A stretch of 64,000 nt of DNA from an uncultured Acidobacteriota bacterium (GTDB lineage Bacteria; Acidobacteriota; Thermoanaerobaculia; Multivoradales; UBA5704): positions 160,001 to 224,000 of the forward strand of contig CAVYRF010000001.1 in NCBI GenBank assembly GCA_963770895.1, written 5' to 3'. The position numbers were made by a program, and so were the translations under genes. The notes beneath the pieces were generated by a model, which was not told the origin of the DNA, did not search any database, and saw nothing but the letters and a program-made list of their open reading frames with translations. Positions 8,855 through 17,776 of this stretch are shown piece after piece. Within the stretch, counting starts at the first letter, position 1; each line of letters starts with the position of its first letter.

Positions 8855-9040
8855 CGCCAATAGGTTAGCACGACAGGCACTCCAGCGCGCGGCGGCGCCA
8901 GTGGTTGTAAGCCCCGAGCGCGCGGCGGTGGTCCTTGGTGGCGGGCTCACGCCGCCGCCCTGTAATAGAGTGGACGTCCATCGAGGTGCCAGCCGCGGAG
9001 TTCGAGGGGGCGTGGTCCGGCGCTTGCCCTGTGGACGGAG

Positions 9041-9685
9041 GTGAGGGTGATCATCCGGGAGTACCGGCCGGCGGATTTTGAGCGGCTCCTGGCGATCGAT
9101 CATGCGGCGTTCGTGCCGGCGCTGGCGTATTCGCGCTCCGAGCTGCGCTATTACGTGCTGGCGCGGCGCGGCAAGACGCTGGTGGCCGAGGCTGCCGCCG
9201 GGGACCGGCGGCACGATGACGGCGCCGGCGGCACTGGTAGCGATGGCGCCGGTGGCGCCGGCGGTGGCGGTAGCGCTGACGCCGGTGGTGACGGCGAGGT
9301 GGTCGGGTTTGTCATCGCGCGCTGCGCTCAGCGCGGCTGGGGGACGGTGGTGACGCTCGACGTGGCGCCGGCCTGGCAGCGACGCGGGATCGGCGGCCGG
9401 CTGATGGCCGCGATCGAAGCGTGGCTGGCGGCGCAGGGGGTGCGGGTGGTGTCGCTGGAGACGCCGGCGGACGAAAGCGGCGCCAGCCAATTCTACGAGC
9501 GGCACGGCTACCAGCTGGGAACCCTGCTGCGCGGCTACTACCACGGCCGCGTCGACGCCTTCGCGATGTTCAAGCGCCTGCCGCCGCCGCCGCCGGCTGC
9601 CGCCGGCCGGGATGACGCGGCCGGGTCGGACGGCCCGGACGCCCAGCCCGGCCCGCACGGTCCGCAAAGCGGCAGCGACCACTAG
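9041..9685 (+). CDS. GNAT N-acetyltransferase (RimI-like)
   Basis: GGAG RBS; VTLDVAPAWQRRGIG acetyl-CoA motif, FYERHGY, GYY; Gly/Asp-rich insert. Confidence 0.85.
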   Translation: MRVIIREYRPADFERLLAIDHAAFVPALAYSRSELRYYVLARRGKTLVAEAAAGDRRHDDGAGGTGSDGAGGAGGGGSADAGGDGEVVGFVIARCAQRGWGTVVTLDVAPAWQRRGIGGRLMAAIEAWLAAQGVRVVSLETPADESGASQFYERHGYQLGTLLRGYYHGRVDAFAMFKRLPPPPPAAAGRDDAAGSDGPDAQPGPHGPQSGSDH

Positions 9686-9726
9686 TGGCCTGCGGGTAGT
9701 GGCCGGGCCGGCTGGTCGGGGGCGGT

Positions 9727-12402
9727 TCAGGCGACCGGCAGCGGGGCCAGGGCGGCGATGACGTCGCCGGTCGTGGCGCAGCGGTCTTCGGGGCGCTTGG
9801 CCAGGAGCTTGTCGATCACCAGGTCGCTCCACGCCTGCGGCAGGCCGGGGCGCAGCGACAGCAGGCTGGGCGGCGGCTGCTGCAGGTGCTGGATGGCGAT
9901 CGCCGTCGAGTTGGCGCCGTCGAACGGTTCGCGGCCGGCAAGCAGGGCGAAGGCCAGGACGCCCAGCGAGTAGATGTCGGAGCGGCCGTCGATGGCCAGG
10001 CCCTGGATCTGCTCGGGCGACATGTAGAGCGGCGAGCCCAAGGCGAAGCCGGCCTGCGTCAGCCGCTTGTTCTCGAAACCGCTCATGCGGGCGATGCCGA
10101 AGTCCAGGATCTTGAGCCGCGTCGCGGTCAGGATGACGTTTTCGGGCTTGAGGTCGCGGTGCACCACTCCCAGGGCGTGGGCTTCCCCCAGGCCCGACGC
10201 GATTTCCGTCAGGATGGTCTTGATGCGGTCCAGGGGCAGCCGCCGGTCGGGGTCGATCAGGTCGGCCAGGACCTCGCCTTCGAGCAGCTCCATGATGATG
10301 AAGATCCATTCGCCGTGGCGGCCCAGGTCGAACACGCGCACCACGTTGGGGTGGGTGATCTTGCGGCAGATCTGCACTTCGCGCAGCAGCCGCTCGACGT
10401 CCACCGAGCCGTCTTCGTGGTGGCTGAGCAGCATCTTGATCGCCACCGGTTCGCCCAGCTCGATGTCCTGCGCCTTGTAGACCCTGCCCATGCCTCCCTG
10501 GCCCAGCTCGGCCAGGATCTGGAAGCGGCCGGCGAGCATCTGGCCGACGCTCAGGGTGCCGATGGGGCGGCCGGGGCCGCGCGGCCGCGATGGACGGGCG
10601 TCCGCGCCCGCGGCGCCGGCGGCTTCACCGGCGCCGGTGCCGCCGGCCGGGATGGCACCGGTCTGGCCACCGGCGGCATCGGCGGCCGTCACCTGCCGCG
10701 ACCGCGACGCCCCCGGCGGTGCCACCGAACGCACGTCCAGCTCGTCGCTGGCGAACAGGCCGGTCGCATGGGTCGGCGGCGGGTCCACCGCACCGGGCCT
10801 TGTCCCGGCTCCAGGCCTCGCCGCGGTGCCGGCGCCGAGCGCGGCGCCATCGAAGGCGACCGCCATCGTCGGCGCCGCCGCGGTCGGCCGCGCCGTCAGG
10901 CCCGGCATGGGCGGAAACGGCGTGACGCGGGTCGCCGCCGTGTCGGGTTCCTGGCGCCGCCGCACGGTGGCCAGGCGCTCGGCCGCGTCCTGGTATTGGA
11001 TCGACGGGTCCGCCAGCTCCTTGAAGCAGGCCGCCGCGTGATCGAGCTTGCCCAGCTGCTCGTAGGAGCGCCCCAGCAGGTAGAGGCGTTCGCAGGCGAC
11101 CTGGAAGCGCTCGCCGCTGCGCGCGTGCACCAGCGTCGAGGGCCGCGCCTGGGGCAGCTGGCCGAGCCGGCGCAGCGCCTCTTCGGCCTTGCCCTCCGCC
11201 AGCAGCAGCGGCGCCAGCTGCAGCATCGCCGCTTCATGCTCGGCGCTGCCGGCGGCGACCTGCATGAGCGCCTGGGCGGCCTTGCCGCGCTCGCCCGCCG
11301 CCAGCAGCTGCGTCGCGGCGGCGACGCGCTGCTTCGCCTTGAGGTATTGGTCGGCGGCGGCGAGCGGGTCGCCCGCCTTGGCGTAGGCCGCTGCCGCAAG
11401 CGCATGCTTGCCCAAGGCGGCGTAACAGCGGCCGGCGTCGCGTGGGCGTGAGGCGCGCAGGTAGGCTTCGGCGGCGCGCTCGTGCTCCTGCGCCGTTTCC
11501 CAGCGCGACCCGGCCTTGGCCCAGTCGCCGCCGGCCTCGTAGGCCTCCGCCGCTTCGCGCGCCAGCCCCGCCGCGGCAAACACGTTGCCGGCTTCCACCG
11601 CGTGGCCGCTGCGCAGATAGATCTGGGCGGCCAGCCGGCGATCGATGTTGGGGGAGCGTTGCAGCAGCCGCACCGCCGCCTCGGTGTCGCCCATCTGCAG
11701 CGCCGCTTCGATCGCCTCGCGGTACTTGCCGCTGTCGGCGAGCAGGCGCACCCCCTGCGTCGTCGGCCGCACGTCGCGCAGCAGCGCCGCGGCTTCGGCC
11801 TCCTTGCCGAGCTTGCGCAACACTTCGGCGCGGCGCAGGCCGATGCGCGCCAGCTGCTCCTGGTTGGCCGCCGGCGGGCGGCCTGGCTCACCCTGGCCGG
11901 ACAGGCGCCTGGCTTCCAGCTCGAGCACGCGCAGGGCGTCGTCGAGCAGCTCGGCGTTCTCGTACTGCTGGGCGGCTTCCCACAGCGCCCTGCCGCGTTC
12001 GAACAGCCGGCCGGCGCGGGCGGCCTGGCCCAACGCCAGGGCGCTGGCCGCCGCCCGCCGGAAGGCGTGCGCCAGCTCGAAGAGGCCGATCGCTTCGTCG
12101 TGGTGGCCGCGCGCCACCAGGTACTCCGCCGCCGGCACCGCCCGCAGCGGCCCGCCGCCGGCGGTCAGCTCGGGCGGCACGGTGCCGAACACCGCCTTGA
12201 GCGCGCACTCCACCGCCAGGCGCTCGTCGCCCGCTTCGACCGCCAGGCGCGCCGCCTTGCGCAGGTCGCCCGCCAGCGCATACATCTCGGCGGCCTTTTG
12301 CGTCCTGCCTTCGCGTTGATAGATCTCGGCCCGCTGCCGGGGATCACGCTTGAGCTTCGCGGCGAATCCAGGCTTAGGGGGCTTCAGAACCATGCCGACC
12401 AC
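9727..12402 (-). CDS. Ser/Thr protein kinase with N-terminal TPR-like helical repeats and C-terminal kinase domain
   Basis: LGQGGMGRVY, VAIK, HRDLKPEN, DFGIAR, YMSPEQ, SDIYSLG; N-terminal AAEAY/AGD repeats. Confidence 0.92.
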   Translation of the reverse strand: MVGMVLKPPKPGFAAKLKRDPRQRAEIYQREGRTQKAAEMYALAGDLRKAARLAVEAGDERLAVECALKAVFGTVPPELTAGGGPLRAVPAAEYLVARGHHDEAIGLFELAHAFRRAAASALALGQAARAGRLFERGRALWEAAQQYENAELLDDALRVLELEARRLSGQGEPGRPPAANQEQLARIGLRRAEVLRKLGKEAEAAALLRDVRPTTQGVRLLADSGKYREAIEAALQMGDTEAAVRLLQRSPNIDRRLAAQIYLRSGHAVEAGNVFAAAGLAREAAEAYEAGGDWAKAGSRWETAQEHERAAEAYLRASRPRDAGRCYAALGKHALAAAAYAKAGDPLAAADQYLKAKQRVAAATQLLAAGERGKAAQALMQVAAGSAEHEAAMLQLAPLLLAEGKAEEALRRLGQLPQARPSTLVHARSGERFQVACERLYLLGRSYEQLGKLDHAAACFKELADPSIQYQDAAERLATVRRRQEPDTAATRVTPFPPMPGLTARPTAAAPTMAVAFDGAALGAGTAARPGAGTRPGAVDPPPTHATGLFASDELDVRSVAPPGASRSRQVTAADAAGGQTGAIPAGGTGAGEAAGAAGADARPSRPRGPGRPIGTLSVGQMLAGRFQILAELGQGGMGRVYKAQDIELGEPVAIKMLLSHHEDGSVDVERLLREVQICRKITHPNVVRVFDLGRHGEWIFIIMELLEGEVLADLIDPDRRLPLDRIKTILTEIASGLGEAHALGVVHRDLKPENVILTATRLKILDFGIARMSGFENKRLTQAGFALGSPLYMSPEQIQGLAIDGRSDIYSLGVLAFALLAGREPFDGANSTAIAIQHLQQPPPSLLSLRPGLPQAWSDLVIDKLLAKRPEDRCATTGDVIAALAPLPVA

Positions 12403-12641
12403 GTTCTCCGGGGCCGATGTCGCTGCCGAAACGTCGAACTTGCAGTATAGAGCATATGTTCACGTGCAAAAAGCGCTCTGCATCGCAGCCCCGGGGCAAA
12501 AAAGTAGCATAGCACCGAGCCCTCTCCGCCGCGTGCCGCCCAGCCAACACCAGGCGCCGGCCATTCAGACATACATATATACGCGAGCGGCGAGCCGTTG
12601 GCGGACCGGGCGGGGGGGCGGCAACGGCCCGGCGGATGCTA

Positions 12642-13743
12642 TTGATACCTGCGTAACAAATGTCCTATACTCTGGGCAGGAGGATAGCCATGCGTCCTCA
12701 AGGAAGCCCAGAGGAGTTGGAACGGCGGCGCAAGCGGGCTGTAGAGCTTCTCCGTGAGGGGTTGCCGCCGGTTGAAGTGGCCCGGATGGTGGGTGTCGAT
12801 AGAAGGAGCGTTCGGCGGTGGAAGGCGGCGCATCAGCAGAGCGGAGCGATGGGCTTGCGGGCCAAGCCTGTTCCGGGACGCCCGAGTCGACTTCCGCAGG
12901 CGGCCAAGGCTGCGCTGGAAGAGTTGCTGCTCCAGGGCGCCGCGGCCGCAGGGTATCCAACGGACCTGTGGACATGCCCACGGGTCGCAGACGTGATCTT
13001 CTCCCGGTTTGGGGTGCATTATCACGCTGATCATGTCGGCCGGCTGCTGCACAGTCTCGGCTGGAGCCCGCAGAAGCCTCAGCGACGCGCCGTCGAACGC
13101 GATGAGGAGAAGATTCAGACATGGATTAAGCAGGAGTGGCCCCGCATTAAAAAAAAGCTTGGCGCCTGAATGCAACGCTGGTTTTTATCGACGAGAGCGG
13201 TTTCTTGATGGCTCCGTGGGTCCGTCGGAGCTGGTCGCGCCACGGCCAAACGCCGGTACTGGTGCAGCGGACGCGCTCTCATCAAAAGGTCTCGGCCATC
13301 GCCGCTCTCTGCATCTCGCCGAGCCGCGACGAGCTGTCGTTGTTCTTCCGACTGCATCCAGATCGAAATATTTGCATCCCCGAGATCGTGGAGTTTCTCC
13401 GCGGCCTTGCTCGCCACTTACAGGGCCGGGCGGTAGTGATTTGGGATCGCCTCCAAGCTCACCGCAGCAAGCGGGTTGACGAGGTTCTTCGGCAAAGCCA
13501 GGGGTCGCGAGCGTCCTTTCTGCCTCCGTACGCCCCCGACCTCAACCCCGTCGAATGTGTCTGGTCGTATTTGAAGACCGGCGCTATTGCCAACCTCGCG
13601 CCAACTCAACTCGACGTACTCACCGCCGCCGCGCGTCACGGTCACCGCAGCCTTCAGCGGAATCAGCCTCTGCTTCGATCCTTCCTGGCGCACAGTCCGC
13701 TTTTTTTGCGCCTCAACTAGGACATTGGTTATGCATGTATCAA
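12642..13743 (+). mobile_element. IS630-family insertion sequence, apparently intact
   Basis: Terminal inverted repeats 12639-12667 and 13718-13746 (26/29 match including flanks); TA duplication at 12640-41 and 13744-45 in a CTAG site; HTH + DDE ORFs. Confidence 0.93.
12690..13720 (+). CDS. IS630 transposase, orfA (12690-13169) + orfB joined by a -1 frameshift
   Basis: HTH with RRWK and WTCPRV; A8G slippery run 13149-13157 gives ...KKAWRLNATLVFIDESGF; VIWD and LPPYAPDLNPVECVW DDE motifs. Confidence 0.92.
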
Positions 13744-13759
13744 TAGTAGGCCCCGCCGC

Positions 13760-15007
13760 TCACGAAAGGCGCACCGCTGCAGCATGGTCTTTGAGCAGGG
13801 GGACCCGACGCCAGTGCCGAAACAGGGCGTCAGCGTGCTCGCTAGGCATGACATCCCTGCCGGTCGAGAGGCGCCATGCGGTGGTGATTCGGGACAGCGC
13901 CTCACGCACGGTCTCGATCGTTTGTCCGGCGTCTGCCTGTGCATGCGCCGCCAGCCGCGCAAAGGTTTTCTCGCTCACCTGCGCAGGATCGCGACTACCG
14001 AGGAGGGACAGCGCCAGATCGGCGCGCACTTCGGGCCATGCTACGGTGCATACCTGGTCGTAGAGCGGTGAGAGCTCAGCTGTGATGCCGTCGGGGTAGA
14101 CCAGGGACCAATTCTTCAAATGGGCATCATTGTTGCCACTGGCGATGATGAAGACCAGCCGACGGACAAATTCGAGGTATGCTTCCTGGCCGGCGATATT
14201 CTTGATCAAGAGCGCACACTGTTGGTATTTAATGTTGTCGTACTTTGCCTCTGGCGGCGTGTTGACGGCTTGTGCCAAATCTTCCTGGTGAATGCGTTGC
14301 TGGCCCTGCCGGTCATAACGCCTAATCAAGAGAACGTGACCACCGGTAGGCGCGTGCACCTGAAGTTCACGGGACAGCGCCGACCGCGGCAGTATGTGGC
14401 ATTCAGGTACTTCGAAGCCTGCAGCACGTGCCCATTCGAGCATGGCATACTCGTTCTCCACCACCTGTGCAAAGGTCGAAGAGTCTAGCTTGGCAATCCA
14501 TTCTCCTCCGTGCCCATGGACCGGGAGCGTAAGCTTGTCATGCTGCCTCAGCACTGAGAACTTGAGCTGTACTCCAGCGAGAGAGAAGCGAAGCCCCCCA
14601 TCGGCCGACCCTGCGGTAAACCGTGTTACTCCGTTCGAGGCCCCATCATCAGTGCCTTCCTCGATCTCCTCAAGGTTCTCTGACGCAGAGCGGATCTCGA
14701 CCGCACCTGGAAGATCCCGGCCCACCGCGGCAAGCAGGGCTATGTCGTCGCCTTGGGGAAGACTTGCATCGCTCTCGATCAGGGCGCGTAAGGGGCCTTC
14801 GGGTACCAGGTTCGCGAAGAACGCCGGAAGACCTCGCTTTCTACGATAGACCTTGCTGAGGTCGTCCTCAAACGATTGGCTAAGGACGGGGCGCCTGGTT
14901 CGGCGCCGGTACTCGTCTGTCAGCCGGAAAGATACCTTCCCGTCATCATTCTCCAAGAGATAGCCAGCACGAAGACCCTGGAGAAGAACCTCGAGGCTGC
15001 GGCTCAT
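13760..15007 (-). CDS. hipA: HipA-family kinase (Couple_hipA N-terminal + HipA_C)
   Basis: FFANLVPEG, FSLAGVQLK, WIAK, RYDR, HQEDLAQ, GNNDAHLKNWS, LSPLYD. Confidence 0.92.
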   Translation of the reverse strand: MSRSLEVLLQGLRAGYLLENDDGKVSFRLTDEYRRRTRRPVLSQSFEDDLSKVYRRKRGLPAFFANLVPEGPLRALIESDASLPQGDDIALLAAVGRDLPGAVEIRSASENLEEIEEGTDDGASNGVTRFTAGSADGGLRFSLAGVQLKFSVLRQHDKLTLPVHGHGGEWIAKLDSSTFAQVVENEYAMLEWARAAGFEVPECHILPRSALSRELQVHAPTGGHVLLIRRYDRQGQQRIHQEDLAQAVNTPPEAKYDNIKYQQCALLIKNIAGQEAYLEFVRRLVFIIASGNNDAHLKNWSLVYPDGITAELSPLYDQVCTVAWPEVRADLALSLLGSRDPAQVSEKTFARLAAHAQADAGQTIETVREALSRITTAWRLSTGRDVMPSEHADALFRHWRRVPLLKDHAAAVRLS

Positions 15008-16635
15008 ATGTCGTCTGCCTGCGACAGCAGATATTCAATTGAAGGCCGGTCAGTTCGCGACCAGCCCGCAAGGCGCTCGGCCATGCGATCGACCGCTTCT
15101 TCGATTGACCTCTTCCGTTCATATAAGAATGAGCGCGTATCTCGTTCTCGGAGAGCTACCACGCCGGCCGACGAAATAGCGTGGGACGAGAAAACTGGCA
15201 AGATTTCGCCGGCCTGTGCCGCAAATTCCAACAGGTCCCTGGCTGCGCCGCTAGCCCCCGGCAGCAGGATTCGATTTGCCGGGGTACGGGCAAGCGGGTC
15301 CCCGGGCGCGAAGATCCTGCGGAATGCCGCCACACCTCTGGTTTCGATCATAGCGGCGACATCAAGCTGCGTACCATCCAGGAAACGGCGGGGCGCGAGC
15401 GATGCCATTCCCAAGAAAGCCACCCTGCTGTCGGCCGCACGCGCGTCGGTACGCTCAGGAAGATGGTATCGCCTGAGCGGTTGTTTAGGGACCAGCGCGA
15501 GCAGGTTTTGCACGCTGGGCTCCTCTTGATTCTCCTCGATTGCTGTAACTCCGTGCCGGAGGAACCTACGCTCGTCGAAAGCTTCGACTGCCAGCAATAG
15601 GCGCCAAACGAAACGAACGAGGAGATCTCGGGTCCGGGGCCTCGGTTCCGGATGGAGTGCGAAGAAGCGGGTCAGGATCATCAGCGGCAGCGATCGTGGC
15701 AGAAGGAGCAAGTGAGGGATCTCTGCCGCTTGGCGCAAAAAGGAGAGAACGTTACGCAGGGCAGGCAGGGCGTCGCTGACGACTCCTTTGAGCATCGTTG
15801 GATCTTTGCGATACAGTTCGGTCAAGGTACGTGTGACGTCAAGGCCCTTCCAGGCTATCAGGCAGCGGAGGAGCTGTTCTTCCTCCGGCCGTCCCATTCC
15901 CATCTCGCGCAGTTCGTCTGCCAAGCTGGCCAACGTCGAGGGATGCTCGCCGACGTGACCGAAAAGGGCGTCGTGGACATCCTGCCACTGCATGCTCTTA
16001 CCGTATTTATTGATACGGAAGAAAATCTCCCGCAGAAGCTGTTCGTCATCGGTCTCGACAATGTACAAAGGTATGCGATATTGACGGATCAAGCTTCCTG
16101 CCCGAAAAACTGCTGCGCGCAGCGTTACATCGTTTGCGTGGCGCCATTGAAAAACCCATTCGCTGAGCGAGGACGCGTCGAGCAACTGTGCTGCCGGCAC
16201 CCACTCGGATGGTACGTTGCCATTTTTTTGCGGTGAGGCAAATTTTTGGTTTGCGGCGTCGAAATAGACCACCCAAGGATCGTCAGGTGAAGGCGAGATC
16301 GGTTGAGGATGAGCCAGTCCGGCGGCGAGCGCGGTCAGGCGCTGCTGGCCGTCTACCACCCAGAGAGCTGAGTGAGTTTCTGGAGCGTCGATCCGCAACG
16401 GTCCAATGGCAATTCTAGCCGCGTCGGCATGTCCCTTCCTAAGCAGGAAAGAGCCGATCGGATAGCCCTGATAGATGCTGTCGAAAAGAGCGACGATATC
16501 GTCTGCCGCCCACCTCAGCGGTCGTTGGAAGCTGGGAATTCTCACGCCCCCCCGGCGCACCATATCGACCAAGTCCTCGACTGTCTCGGTGTCGGCCTCC
16601 GGGCGTAGATTCAACCTATGGGGCTCGGGGTCCAT
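15004..16635 (-). CDS. DUF262 (ParB-like/GmrSD N-terminal) domain protein
   Basis: IPSFQRPLRW, SIYQGYPIGSFLL, VVDGQQRLTAL, IFFRINKYG; stop overlaps the hipA start (ATGA). Confidence 0.88.
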   Translation of the reverse strand: MDPEPHRLNLRPEADTETVEDLVDMVRRGGVRIPSFQRPLRWAADDIVALFDSIYQGYPIGSFLLRKGHADAARIAIGPLRIDAPETHSALWVVDGQQRLTALAAGLAHPQPISPSPDDPWVVYFDAANQKFASPQKNGNVPSEWVPAAQLLDASSLSEWVFQWRHANDVTLRAAVFRAGSLIRQYRIPLYIVETDDEQLLREIFFRINKYGKSMQWQDVHDALFGHVGEHPSTLASLADELREMGMGRPEEEQLLRCLIAWKGLDVTRTLTELYRKDPTMLKGVVSDALPALRNVLSFLRQAAEIPHLLLLPRSLPLMILTRFFALHPEPRPRTRDLLVRFVWRLLLAVEAFDERRFLRHGVTAIEENQEEPSVQNLLALVPKQPLRRYHLPERTDARAADSRVAFLGMASLAPRRFLDGTQLDVAAMIETRGVAAFRRIFAPGDPLARTPANRILLPGASGAARDLLEFAAQAGEILPVFSSHAISSAGVVALRERDTRSFLYERKRSIEEAVDRMAERLAGWSRTDRPSIEYLLSQADDI

Positions 16636-16843
16636 CCTCGGATTATCTCACTACTGGATCTCCCTTAGCCTGTGGCTATGGATCCGACGCGGTGGGGCCA
16701 CAGAGGGACGTCACATGAGGGAAGCCACGGCTCTTGTCCCACCCCAACGGTGGTATTATGGATGGGTCGGGGGGCCCCACGCTGCTGGATCCTGCGCCTT
16801 GGATTCCGGGCGGCAAGCAGGGGGCCCAAAAGGACGACGCACC

Positions 16844-17776
16844 ATGTACACCTTGCGGACGTTGGCTGCGATGGCGGTGCTCTCTTGGGGGTTGGGGGCC
16901 GTGGTTCCGGCTCCTCTCCGTGCCGACGATGTGTATCTGAAGAACGGCCGATCCTTCACCGGCGTGGTGGCCGAAGTGGGGGAGACGCAGGTGCGCATTG
17001 AGATGCCGGGCGGCAGCCTGAGCTTGCCGCTGTCGGCCGTCGACCGGGTGGAAAAGTCGGGCTCGACGTTTGGCGGCTTCCTGCAGCGCAAGCAGGAGCT
17101 GCTGGCCGCCGAAGCGCACGCGCGTGGCGAGCGGCATGCGACCGACTGGCTGGACCTGGCGCGTTGGGCCAAGCGCAACGGCTTCACCCAGGGGGCGCGC
17201 GAAGCGGCGCTGGTCGCGGCGGAGATCGACCCTCACGTGGACGGGCTGGCGCCGATCCTGGTCCCCATGGGCTACGTGTTCGCCCAGAAGCAGGACCGCT
17301 GGGTCTCGTTCGAGGAATCGATGCGCATGCAGGGCTTCGTCCAGGACGGCAACGGCCAATGGGTGAGCCGTGAGCAGTACGCCGCCGAGCAGGCCGCCAG
17401 CCGGCAGGCGTGGCTGGCGCAGCAGCAGGCCGCCACGGCGGCGGCGGCGCAGGCCGGGGATGAGGTGGCCTACCAGGCGGCGATCGCCCAGCAGGCTGCA
17501 GGCGACTTCTCCAACAGCAACGCCTATCCCGGCGACGCCTGGCCGATTTTGTACGGCGGCGGCATCGCCGTGCCCGGCTACGGCGCGTACGGCTACGGCC
17601 GCTACGCTCGCCGCGGCCAGGCGTTCGGCGCCGCGCGCATCGGCCCGCCGTTCCGCCAGCCGGGGAGCCTGCCGGTCGGCCATCCTCGCGCCGGCCACTT
17701 TGGCGGTGGCGGCGCGCACGGTGGCGGCGGCCACTTTGCCGGCGGCGGCGGCCACGCGGGCGGGGTGCGCCGTTAG
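16844..17776 (+). CDS. Secreted hypothetical protein with Gly/His-rich tail
   Basis: Signal peptide ending LRA-DDVYLKNG; AGGA RBS; host-like codon usage. Confidence 0.7.
   Translation: MYTLRTLAAMAVLSWGLGAVVPAPLRADDVYLKNGRSFTGVVAEVGETQVRIEMPGGSLSLPLSAVDRVEKSGSTFGGFLQRKQELLAAEAHARGERHATDWLDLARWAKRNGFTQGAREAALVAAEIDPHVDGLAPILVPMGYVFAQKQDRWVSFEESMRMQGFVQDGNGQWVSREQYAAEQAASRQAWLAQQQAATAAAAQAGDEVAYQAAIAQQAAGDFSNSNAYPGDAWPILYGGGIAVPGYGAYGYGRYARRGQAFGAARIGPPFRQPGSLPVGHPRAGHFGGGGAHGGGGHFAGGGGHAGGVRR

Follow-up and report, generated by a model that had tools for sequence, protein, structure and literature searches.

A DUF262 protein in the position of HipB: a conserved two-gene module with a HipA-family kinase and a candidate toxin-antitoxin system

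What holds a HipA kinase in check when no HipB is encoded beside it? HipA kinases are a classic model of bacterial persistence, and even for HipB the way in which they are kept inactive is still a matter of debate. The question is raised here by two genes in a 64,000-nucleotide (nt) stretch of DNA, hereafter the window, from an uncultured Acidobacteriota bacterium of the Thermoanaerobaculia (assembly GCA_963770895.1, contig CAVYRF010000001.1, positions 160,001 to 224,000). On the minus strand of the window, a gene for a DUF262 protein of 543 amino acids (aa) (15004..16635), identified in the list of open reading frames (ORFs) and by the Pfam family GmrSD_N, is the upstream gene of an operon. 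The downstream gene, hipA (13760..15007, minus strand), encodes a full-length HipA-family Ser/Thr kinase of 415 aa, consisting of an N-subdomain and a core kinase domain. The original prediction, made from the sequence, read the pair as a candidate undescribed defence or toxin-antitoxin (TA) system. The two genes form a translationally coupled module that is both conserved and mobile. It is probably a TA-type module in which the DUF262 protein stands in for HipB.

The two genes overlap in the ATGA stop/start sequence at 15004..15007 (minus strand), where GAC GAC ATA TGA runs into ATG AGC CGC, just as the original prediction had it. This suggests translational coupling of the DUF262 gene and hipA. 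To see whether the arrangement extends beyond the window, one genome per species was scanned; 349 of 409 pattern-matched stretches encode a relative of the DUF262 protein, and the best 80 were taken. The conservation of gene neighbourhood that had been proposed as a check is evident among them, hipA lying directly downstream and on the same strand in 75 of the 80 loci, that is, in 75 of the 77 that are testable. Three of the other five stop at a contig edge (L045, L056 and L076), one has no hipA (L023), and one has a truncated DUF262 gene and no hipA (L049). The distance from stop to start codon is -4 nt in 33 of the 75 loci, +1 in 13 and 0 in 12, and lies within 4 nt in 68 of them, when the start codon nearest the stop is chosen, which favours small gaps. 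Across the 80 loci there is no third conserved gene, apart from those in the synteny blocks that close kin share in Myxococcus and in Thermoanaerobaculia. One apparent exception to the two-gene form, a 1,032-aa open frame in genome G040 that looked like a fusion, proved to be a spurious upstream extension of two separate genes with a 4-nt overlap.

The DUF262 family consists of proteins of ~544 aa, with 701 matches at E<=1e-5 among 8,000 scored candidates. Judged by record titles, the 80 loci come from Acidobacteriota, Cyanobacteria, Bacteroidota/Rhodothermota, Myxococcota, Pseudomonadota, Planctomycetota, Actinomycetota, Chloroflexota, Gemmatimonadota and Eremiobacterota. Closer to the window, a full-length family member is found in 8 of 40 relatives and in none of nine congeners, and hipA follows it in all eight loci examined; one of these relatives, G034, also has a second copy. 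The genome itself carries a second pair, on contig 2 (G000:C2:913034-915789; L002, L083), with an ATGA-type junction; its HipA is 44% and its DUF262 protein ~36% identical to those of the window. Since this HipA falls in a different subclade, the second pair was probably acquired separately. The pairwise distances of the two proteins are correlated across loci (r 0.88; none of 2,000 Mantel permutations reached this value), a correlation to which shared host ancestry contributes.

From the window alone one might have thought that the adjacency is an accident of insertion without functional meaning, because the pair sits in a foreign island beside an insertion sequence (IS). We give this explanation practically no credence, as the conservation data refute it: since the 75 of 77 testable loci come from many phyla, the adjacency is not due to chance. 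The junctions of 0 to 4 nt, the second pair in the same genome, the correlated protein distances and the successful model of the complex (see below) argue in the same direction.

The module also travels on mobile DNA. On the conjugative plasmid p5 of Azospirillum argentinense the pair adjoins a recombinase gene and type IV secretion genes, under the generic annotations 'DUF262 domain-containing protein' and 'type II toxin-antitoxin system HipA family toxin'. In a metagenome-assembled genome (MAG) labelled Rhizobium (L013), the cassette hardly differs from the one in a cyanobacterial MAG (L016), and synteny with Myxococcus loci is seen in L043, from a record that bears the label Comamonas sp. 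Both cases suggest recent transfer, binning error or labelling error.

The downstream gene has all the sequence features of a HipA kinase. Its product matches Pfam HipA_C (1.2e-48; 166.1 bits vs a cut-off of 30.5) over residues 141-378 and Couple_hipA (2.2e-20; 73.4 bits vs 22.5) over residues 5-105, has no extra domain, and scores 60 bits vs 27.8 on NCBIfam TIGR03071. Its nearest relatives of solved structure are distant (HipT 7ab4, 3.7e-19; E. coli HipA, ~7e-9). The motifs that the original prediction had listed as intact, FSLAGVQLK, DAHLKN and PLYD, are indeed so, and their key residues are invariant in 37 of 37 DUF262-linked HipAs. The Gly-rich loop F141-K149 (FSLAGVQLK; 14561..14587, minus strand), which includes Ser142, aligns with the HipT loop 'MSIAGYQPK', and its residues F141, S142, A144, G145, Q147 and K149 are all invariant. 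The same holds for G291, N292, D294, H296, K298 and N299 of the catalytic loop G291-N299 (GNNDAHLKN; 14111..14137, minus strand), for P314, Y316 and D317 of the Mg-binding Asp motif P314-L-Y-D317 (14057..14068, minus strand), and for K173. Characterised HipA and HipT kinases arrest translation by phosphorylating an aminoacyl-tRNA synthetase.

The absence of a flanking helix-turn-helix (HTH) antitoxin gene, another point of the original prediction, was borne out. A profile built from 16 HipB ORFs detects no HipB-like frame in the flanks of the window pair, and no Pfam family was found in the three small flanking ORFs scanned. The same profile, applied to the 2,207 frames within 1 kb of the pairs, finds HipB-like frames in only one of the 80 loci, L080. 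In that locus two HipB-like HTH frames (L080:4777-5866 and 8868-10514; E 2e-10 and 3.2e-09) lie upstream of the DUF262-HipA pair, with a large serine recombinase gene downstream. The locus may represent a three-gene variant or simply a mobile-element context.

Where, then, did the kinase come from? A HipA-like match occurs in 71 of the 301 genomes of the phylum sampled, a tally that includes one unpublished genome (G088) excluded elsewhere. The best four HipAs outside the genome itself (408-450 bits) have no DUF262 gene upstream. A short HipB is encoded there instead, recognized as HTH_3 by Pfam in L108-L110 and as HipB-like by likeness in L111, and an HTH_3 gene lies upstream in 19 of 21 other HipA loci. 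The nearest outside relatives of the kinase are thus canonical hipBA kinases and the DUF262 gene takes the position of hipB, as had been noted originally. In a tree of 68 HipAs (IQ-TREE quick search, LG+C20), from which one unpublished row (L122) and the short HipT-like matches L124-L127, L130 and L132 were omitted, all 46 DUF262-linked rows, two of them identical, fall in a clade of 50 with an SH-aLRT support of 99, together with four rows of hipBA type (95). The DUF262 label requires one change on this tree, and none of 500 shuffles gave so low a number. This topology agrees with the DUF262 gene having replaced hipB once and then spread horizontally, although the direction of the swap is not proven by the tree.

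The way in which pairs decay also bears on the roles of the two genes. In five loci with an intact DUF262 gene (L014, L017, L023, L046 and L073) the adjoining hipA is missing, truncated or frameshifted, and L081 alone shows the reverse. In L049 and L054 damage affects both genes, and L032, near a contig end, is ambiguous. An apparent internal stop in hipA of L072 is its natural stop. One Thermoanaerobaculia locus (L023:6001-7710) is syntenic with L004, L007 and L009, lacks hipA and has a DUF262 frame ~55 codons longer; the toxin gene seems to have been lost by deletion, leaving its partner orphaned. This direction of decay would fit HipA being the harmful partner.

The DUF262 protein, an NTPase-like member of the GmrSD family with a ParB/Srx fold, matches GmrSD_N (E 5.9e-23; 82.5 bits vs a cut-off of 33.2) over residues 19-220, and this is its sole Pfam family. 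In the public gene call it begins at Met25 (519 aa; window 16561-16635). Met1 at 16635 is the better start, since homologues align from residue 8-10. Two motifs are assigned to DUF262 domains in a description of BrxU and HEC-06 (bioRxiv 10.1101/2024.01.29.577857): LFDS or RLFDS in nucleotide binding and DGQQR in nucleoside triphosphate (NTP) hydrolysis. Both are present here. L50-F51-D52-S53 (16477..16488, minus strand), the equivalent of BrxU 'RLFDS', is invariant in an alignment of 20 sequences, and S53 is so in a second one of 38. D95-G96-Q97-Q98-R99 (16339..16353, minus strand) is invariant in all 38 sequences of the latter, as is FQR at residues 36-38. GmrSD_N is likewise found by Pfam in 38 of 38 family members. 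In contrast to this uniformity at the N-terminus, GmrSD_C/DUF1524 is found in none of the 38, even at E<=1, and there is no recognisable HNH signature. The C-terminal half contains other conserved polar motifs, FD-R, ANR and SH, in common with one bona fide PDC-M55C protein.

The AlphaFold2 model of the DUF262 protein (mean predicted local distance difference test, pLDDT, 88.5) resembles restriction and defence proteins, BrxU, SspE and DndI holding the top ranks in Foldseek. In structural comparison (VIA), BrxU aligns over 442 residues (model 12-520; Z 15.9, root-mean-square deviation (rmsd) 15.3), the C-terminal domain of SspE over 284 (model 212-528; Z 9.2, rmsd 5.9) and DndI over 406 (Z 7.9, rmsd 8.5). 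ParB, Noc, KorB and sulfiredoxin match the N-domain of the model with Z 3.7-4.8. The PADLOC models matched by the protein are PDC-M55C, HEC-05/06, NsnA, SspE, Orf5, DpdB and PD-T4-2_A. Of the anti-phage proteins with DUF262 domains that the original prediction had named, SspE and NsnA of Menshen are among these matches and Dazbog is not.

If the DUF262 protein replaces HipB, the two proteins of the pair may be expected to touch. Modelling of the complex, which the original prediction had proposed, supports binding: the predicted DUF262-HipA complex passes with a score of 0.87, the best of three controls reaching 0.01. Of 80 solved complexes 58 attain the pass mark, as do 2 of 110 mismatched pairs, though these counts are only approximate here because the alignments were our own. 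At least 72% of contacts are shared between runs, and the pLDDT of the partner is at least 80. The interface comprises residues 333-337 and 517-542 of the DUF262 protein, and residues 35-52 (N-subdomain), 247-271, 308-310 and 355-357 (core) of HipA. The C-terminal tail of the DUF262 protein is predicted to dock between the N-subdomain and the kinase core of HipA. This putative docking element, delimited by the modelled interface and by conservation, spans residues 517-542 (15010..15087, minus strand) and has the form W525-x3-D529-R530-P531-S532-I533-x2-LL. D529 and R530 are nearly invariant across the 38 sequences, and the DRPSI tail is missing from the single bona fide PDC-M55C protein examined. 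At the level of the motif, several HipB proteins end in RPTLEELM-acidic, which resembles the DRPSIxxLL-acidic end of the DUF262 tail.

Taken together, these data lead us to favour, with some but by no means full confidence, a self-contained and horizontally mobile module of TA type, in which HipA would be toxic, the DUF262 protein would occupy the place of HipB, and the outcome would probably be abortive infection; toxicity, neutralisation, trigger, target and defence are all inferred. HipA would be the toxic effector and, by analogy with its characterised kin, could arrest translation by phosphorylating an aminoacyl-tRNA synthetase. The DUF262 protein would be its cognate partner instead of HipB and, according to the model of the complex, may hold it through the C-terminal tail. 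Translational coupling would ensure joint synthesis of the two proteins, which would assemble into an inactive complex. HipA would then be freed or activated by some NTP-dependent event at the DUF262 module, and growth would stop, leading to abortive infection. The likeliest trigger, if BrxU and SspE are a guide, would be the recognition of foreign or modified DNA. The release of HipA by a sensing DUF262 protein upon infection, as proposed in the original prediction, is purely conjectural.

Several observations weigh against this reading. The enrichment in defence islands that had been anticipated is not what the neighbourhoods display. The 103 neighbouring proteins of 31 loci are mostly of the housekeeping kind (alanyl-tRNA synthetase, the alpha subunit of DNA polymerase III, elongation factor G, FTHFS, transporters, oxidoreductases), and a defence-island context is not evident in these 31 loci. 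Credible defence neighbours, given as a raw count without a background rate, occur in four of the 31: LmuB-like in L010, SoFic in L014, TIR/ThsB-like in L051 and a STAND-kinase in L063. PADLOC matches of neighbours to generic domains (ABC ATPase, desaturase, spermine synthase, cyclase) were left out of this count. Nor does any of the 20 pattern-matched stretches in IMG/VR viral contigs encode a relative. A phage-sensing abortive role is plausible by analogy with BrxU, SspE and HipAD, and the gene neighbourhoods do not support it. The evidence for the TA relationship has its own weak points. The score of the complex is the confidence of a model and not a measurement. HipB tails are not significantly retrieved by a profile of the DUF262 tail, the best HipB having an E of 1.7 and ranking about fifth of 752 ORFs. 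The branch that joins solely DUF262-linked HipAs has a weak support of 61. The 5:1 asymmetry of decay comes from small numbers and from MAGs, with a length-weighted binomial one-sided p of ~0.06. Finally, the conserved polar residues FD-R, ANR and SH in the C-terminal domain make an enzymatic activity of the DUF262 protein itself possible.

The same neighbourhoods suit an ordinary type II TA system of addiction or persistence that senses no phage. The DUF262 protein would then be a large, labile, DNA-binding antitoxin and autorepressor, and the pair would stabilise mobile DNA or cause dormancy. Gene order, tight coupling and replacement of hipB all fit such a system, as do the cassettes that lie alone among housekeeping genes and not in defence islands, and the copy that a conjugative plasmid carries, with a recombinase beside it. 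Furthermore, CTP-dependent DNA-binding proteins of the ParB/Noc/KorB type share the fold of the N-domain, and the asymmetry of decay would fit any toxin-antitoxin pair. We nonetheless regard this alternative as unlikely, though deserving serious attention. A partner of 543 aa with invariant NTPase motifs and a full GmrSD architecture exceeds what neutralisation and repression need; its closest characterised relatives (BrxU, SspE, HEC-05/06, NsnA and PDC-M55C) are all defence proteins or candidates for that role; and one HipA system with a non-HipB partner is described, in passages citing it, as having been shown to defend against phage.

The polar motifs of the C-terminal half raise yet another alternative, namely that the roles are reversed. 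The DUF262 protein would be the effector, nicking or clamping DNA or consuming NTP by means of FD-R, ANR and SH, and HipA would regulate it, on or off, by phosphorylation. It folds like the restriction enzymes BrxU and SspE, the motifs in question recur in PDC-M55C, and the predicted contact is equally compatible with a kinase and its substrate. This arrangement nevertheless seems improbable to us, given the lack of a DUF1524/HNH signature in all 38 members at E<=1, the descent of the HipA lineage from, or its sister relationship to, HipB-paired toxin kinases, and the order of upstream partner and downstream kinase. The more frequent loss of hipA than of the DUF262 gene also speaks against it.

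Returning to the favoured TA-type module with HipA as the toxin, one may go a step further and picture a restriction-enzyme scaffold rewired as the sensor of a kinase toxin. HipB would have been displaced once by the nuclease-less GmrSD/BrxU-like NTPase, which would have gained a short C-terminal peptide to clamp HipA between N-subdomain and kinase core. Recognition of foreign or modified DNA in the manner of type IV restriction, or else of the nucleotide state in an infected cell, would lead to arrest of translation by HipA. The pair would then be an eleventh Hip organization and a new two-gene abortive-infection system, spread horizontally through at least eight phyla, and the same scaffold would serve as an exchangeable sensor, coupled to HipA here and to an ATPase and protein B in PDC-M55. 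This broader proposal is tentative, and we hold it rather more doubtful than not.

The site of the pair in the window illustrates how the module may spread. It lies in a strain-specific insertion of low GC content with an IS and the two-gene cassette (12358..16921), delimited by synteny with congeners and by the GC profile. GC content is 0.55-0.63 over ~12250-16750 vs 0.72-0.80 in the flanks, in keeping with the lower-GC patch next to an IS630 that had been pointed out originally. Congeners are syntenic in the flanks, and in one of them (G003) the flank matches lie 363 bp apart vs 4,564 bp here, from which it follows that the cassette arrived by insertion between two divergent genes. The DNA of the cassette is unmatched in any relative searched by DNA comparison with congeners. 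Mobile-element genes also lie beside the pair in a few more of the 31 loci.

The IS630-family element (12630..13755, plus strand) is convergent with hipA and ends ~5 nt from its stop codon. It is defined by the Pfam families HTH_33, HTH_32, HTH_29 and DDE_3 and by terminal inverted repeats of 38 nt, 82% complementary (12630-12667 and 13718-13755). By Pfam its transposase is split over two frames, with the HTH families at 12660-13169 and DDE_3 at 13205-13720, and is therefore either frameshifted or expressed by recoding. The genome has a further copy, 91% identical, at G000:C1:1997168-1998277, and congeners carry related ones. Adjoining the island, the minus strand at 9727-12402 encodes an 891-aa protein kept in congeners. 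Direct reading of its sequence gives a Hanks-type Ser/Thr kinase domain (HRDLKPEN) at the C-terminus and, at the N-terminus, a long stretch rich in repeats.

Upstream of the operon, the intergenic region 16636..16843 separates it from a divergent neighbour on the plus strand, whose ATG is likely near 16844. This region is presumably the site of the operon promoter. A consensus scan found no sigma-70-type site in it, that consensus being uninformative for this organism, and scans for promoters and terminators gave counts no higher than in shuffled sequence. The region contains an imperfect 20-nt inverted repeat (16680-16699 and 16773-16792).

The widespread replacement of HipB by a large NTPase of a restriction-enzyme family would offer a new handle on the restraint of HipA. 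Should the module prove to act in phage defence, it would link the sensing of DNA modification, as in BrxU and SspE, to the shutdown of translation, and would add to the single validated HipA-based defence, HipAD. The DUF262 scaffold without nuclease, in common with PDC-M55, appears to be used with different effectors. The generic database labels 'DUF262 domain-containing protein' and 'HipA family toxin' could also be improved.

How does the pair compare with known systems? With the canonical hipBA of E. coli K-12 and relatives it shares a full-length HipA with N-subdomain, core domain and all catalytic motifs, an upstream and tightly coupled partner gene, and, as the nearest HipA relatives outside the set, the hipBA kinases. 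The C-terminus of HipB has a proposed site across N-subdomain 1 and the kinase core, and the modelled contact of the DUF262 tail would be of that kind. Unlike in hipBA, there is no HTH/XRE HipB here, the partner being a 543-aa GmrSD-like protein of NTPase type, and the kinase is distant from the characterised ones.

HipAD/DS-6, in the passages that cite it, consists of two genes, for a HipA-family kinase and a non-HipB partner, and gives an experimentally shown phage protection that is lost in a kinase catalytic mutant (DefensePredictor, Science 2026, PMC13092281). It is read there as an abortive system similar to toxin-antitoxin pairs. The likeness to the present pair resides in a HipA-family kinase encoded with one non-HipB partner; in contrast, the partner there is described as having DUF3037 and DUF1829, and here it has GmrSD_N only.

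Gerdes et al. (2021), in their main text, define families of HipA-homologous kinases by the kind of adjacent partner, a principle that can be extended to the present pair. Their ten Hip organizations are hipBA, hipAB, hipBST, hipEB, hipH, hipRF/RG, hipMP, hipL, hipIN and hipJS. The partner is an HTH HipB, HipS, HipS-HIRAN, a gamma-delta-resolvase-like or an Stl-like protein, or else the kinase is monocistronic and has its own HTH or HIRAN. A GmrSD_N partner matches none of the ten, and neither 'DUF' nor 'GmrS' occurs as a term in the main text. HipA, DUF262 and ParB are likewise absent as terms from Kaur et al. (2020).

On the side of the partner, GmrSD, BrxU/HEC-05, SspE, HEC-06 and DndI have in common with the DUF262 protein the N-terminal DUF262 domain, the LFDS and DGQQR motifs and the overall multi-domain fold. 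Unlike the GmrSD-family type IV enzymes, the protein described here has no DUF1524/HNH signature, and its effector is apparently a separate kinase gene and not a fused nuclease. A parallel is provided by ptuXYZ, in which PtuX, according to its description, is a DUF262 protein without the DUF1524 nuclease domain, encoded with a separate effector of toxin type (PMC11980606). The likeness lies in this combination of a nuclease-less DUF262 protein and a separate effector; the two systems are set apart by description, not by sequence, as ptuXYZ is a three-gene module that combines PtuX with a PtuA-like ATPase and with a PIN-BECR RNase in place of a kinase (Gerdes 2025, mBio, PMC11980606).

PDC-M55, a PADLOC candidate system, also includes a DUF262 protein, its component C. 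The protein described here matches the PDC-M55C model over its full length (1.3e-56), at 190.5 bits, which is weak vs the 417.1 bits of a bona fide member, and the internal C-terminal motifs are common to both. That member belongs to the PDC-M55 operon of the Paracoccus yeei plasmid pYEE5 (L138:2663-6662; A 2.4e-78, B 1.6e-32, C 417 bits), which encodes an NsnB-like AAA ATPase, a protein without Pfam family and a DUF262 protein. Unlike there, where the DUF262 gene follows A and B, it comes first here and its partner is HipA. PDC-M55B has no match in the genome, and PDC-M55A matches only at C1:249859-251220, ~75 kb away. The identity of the pair with PDC-M55 was rejected, given that neither A nor B lies beside it and that a true member scores more than twice as high on the C model. 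Menshen NsnA/NsnB is more distant than PDC-M55. A third DUF262-like ORF of the same genome (G000:C1:227468-228751; L085, L086), in a 673-aa open frame 3.5-4.8 kb past the end of the window, matches only the N-terminal part of the PDC-M55C model (5.9e-14).

Literature searches found no description of a DUF262-HipA pairing, Gerdes et al. (2021) being covered by its main text and HipAD by citing passages; to this extent the original prediction that the pairing had not been described or named stands. Together, the differences from PDC-M55, from HipAD and from the ten organizations of Gerdes and colleagues point to an apparently undescribed Hip arrangement, in which a DUF262 protein is found where canonical hipBA has HipB.

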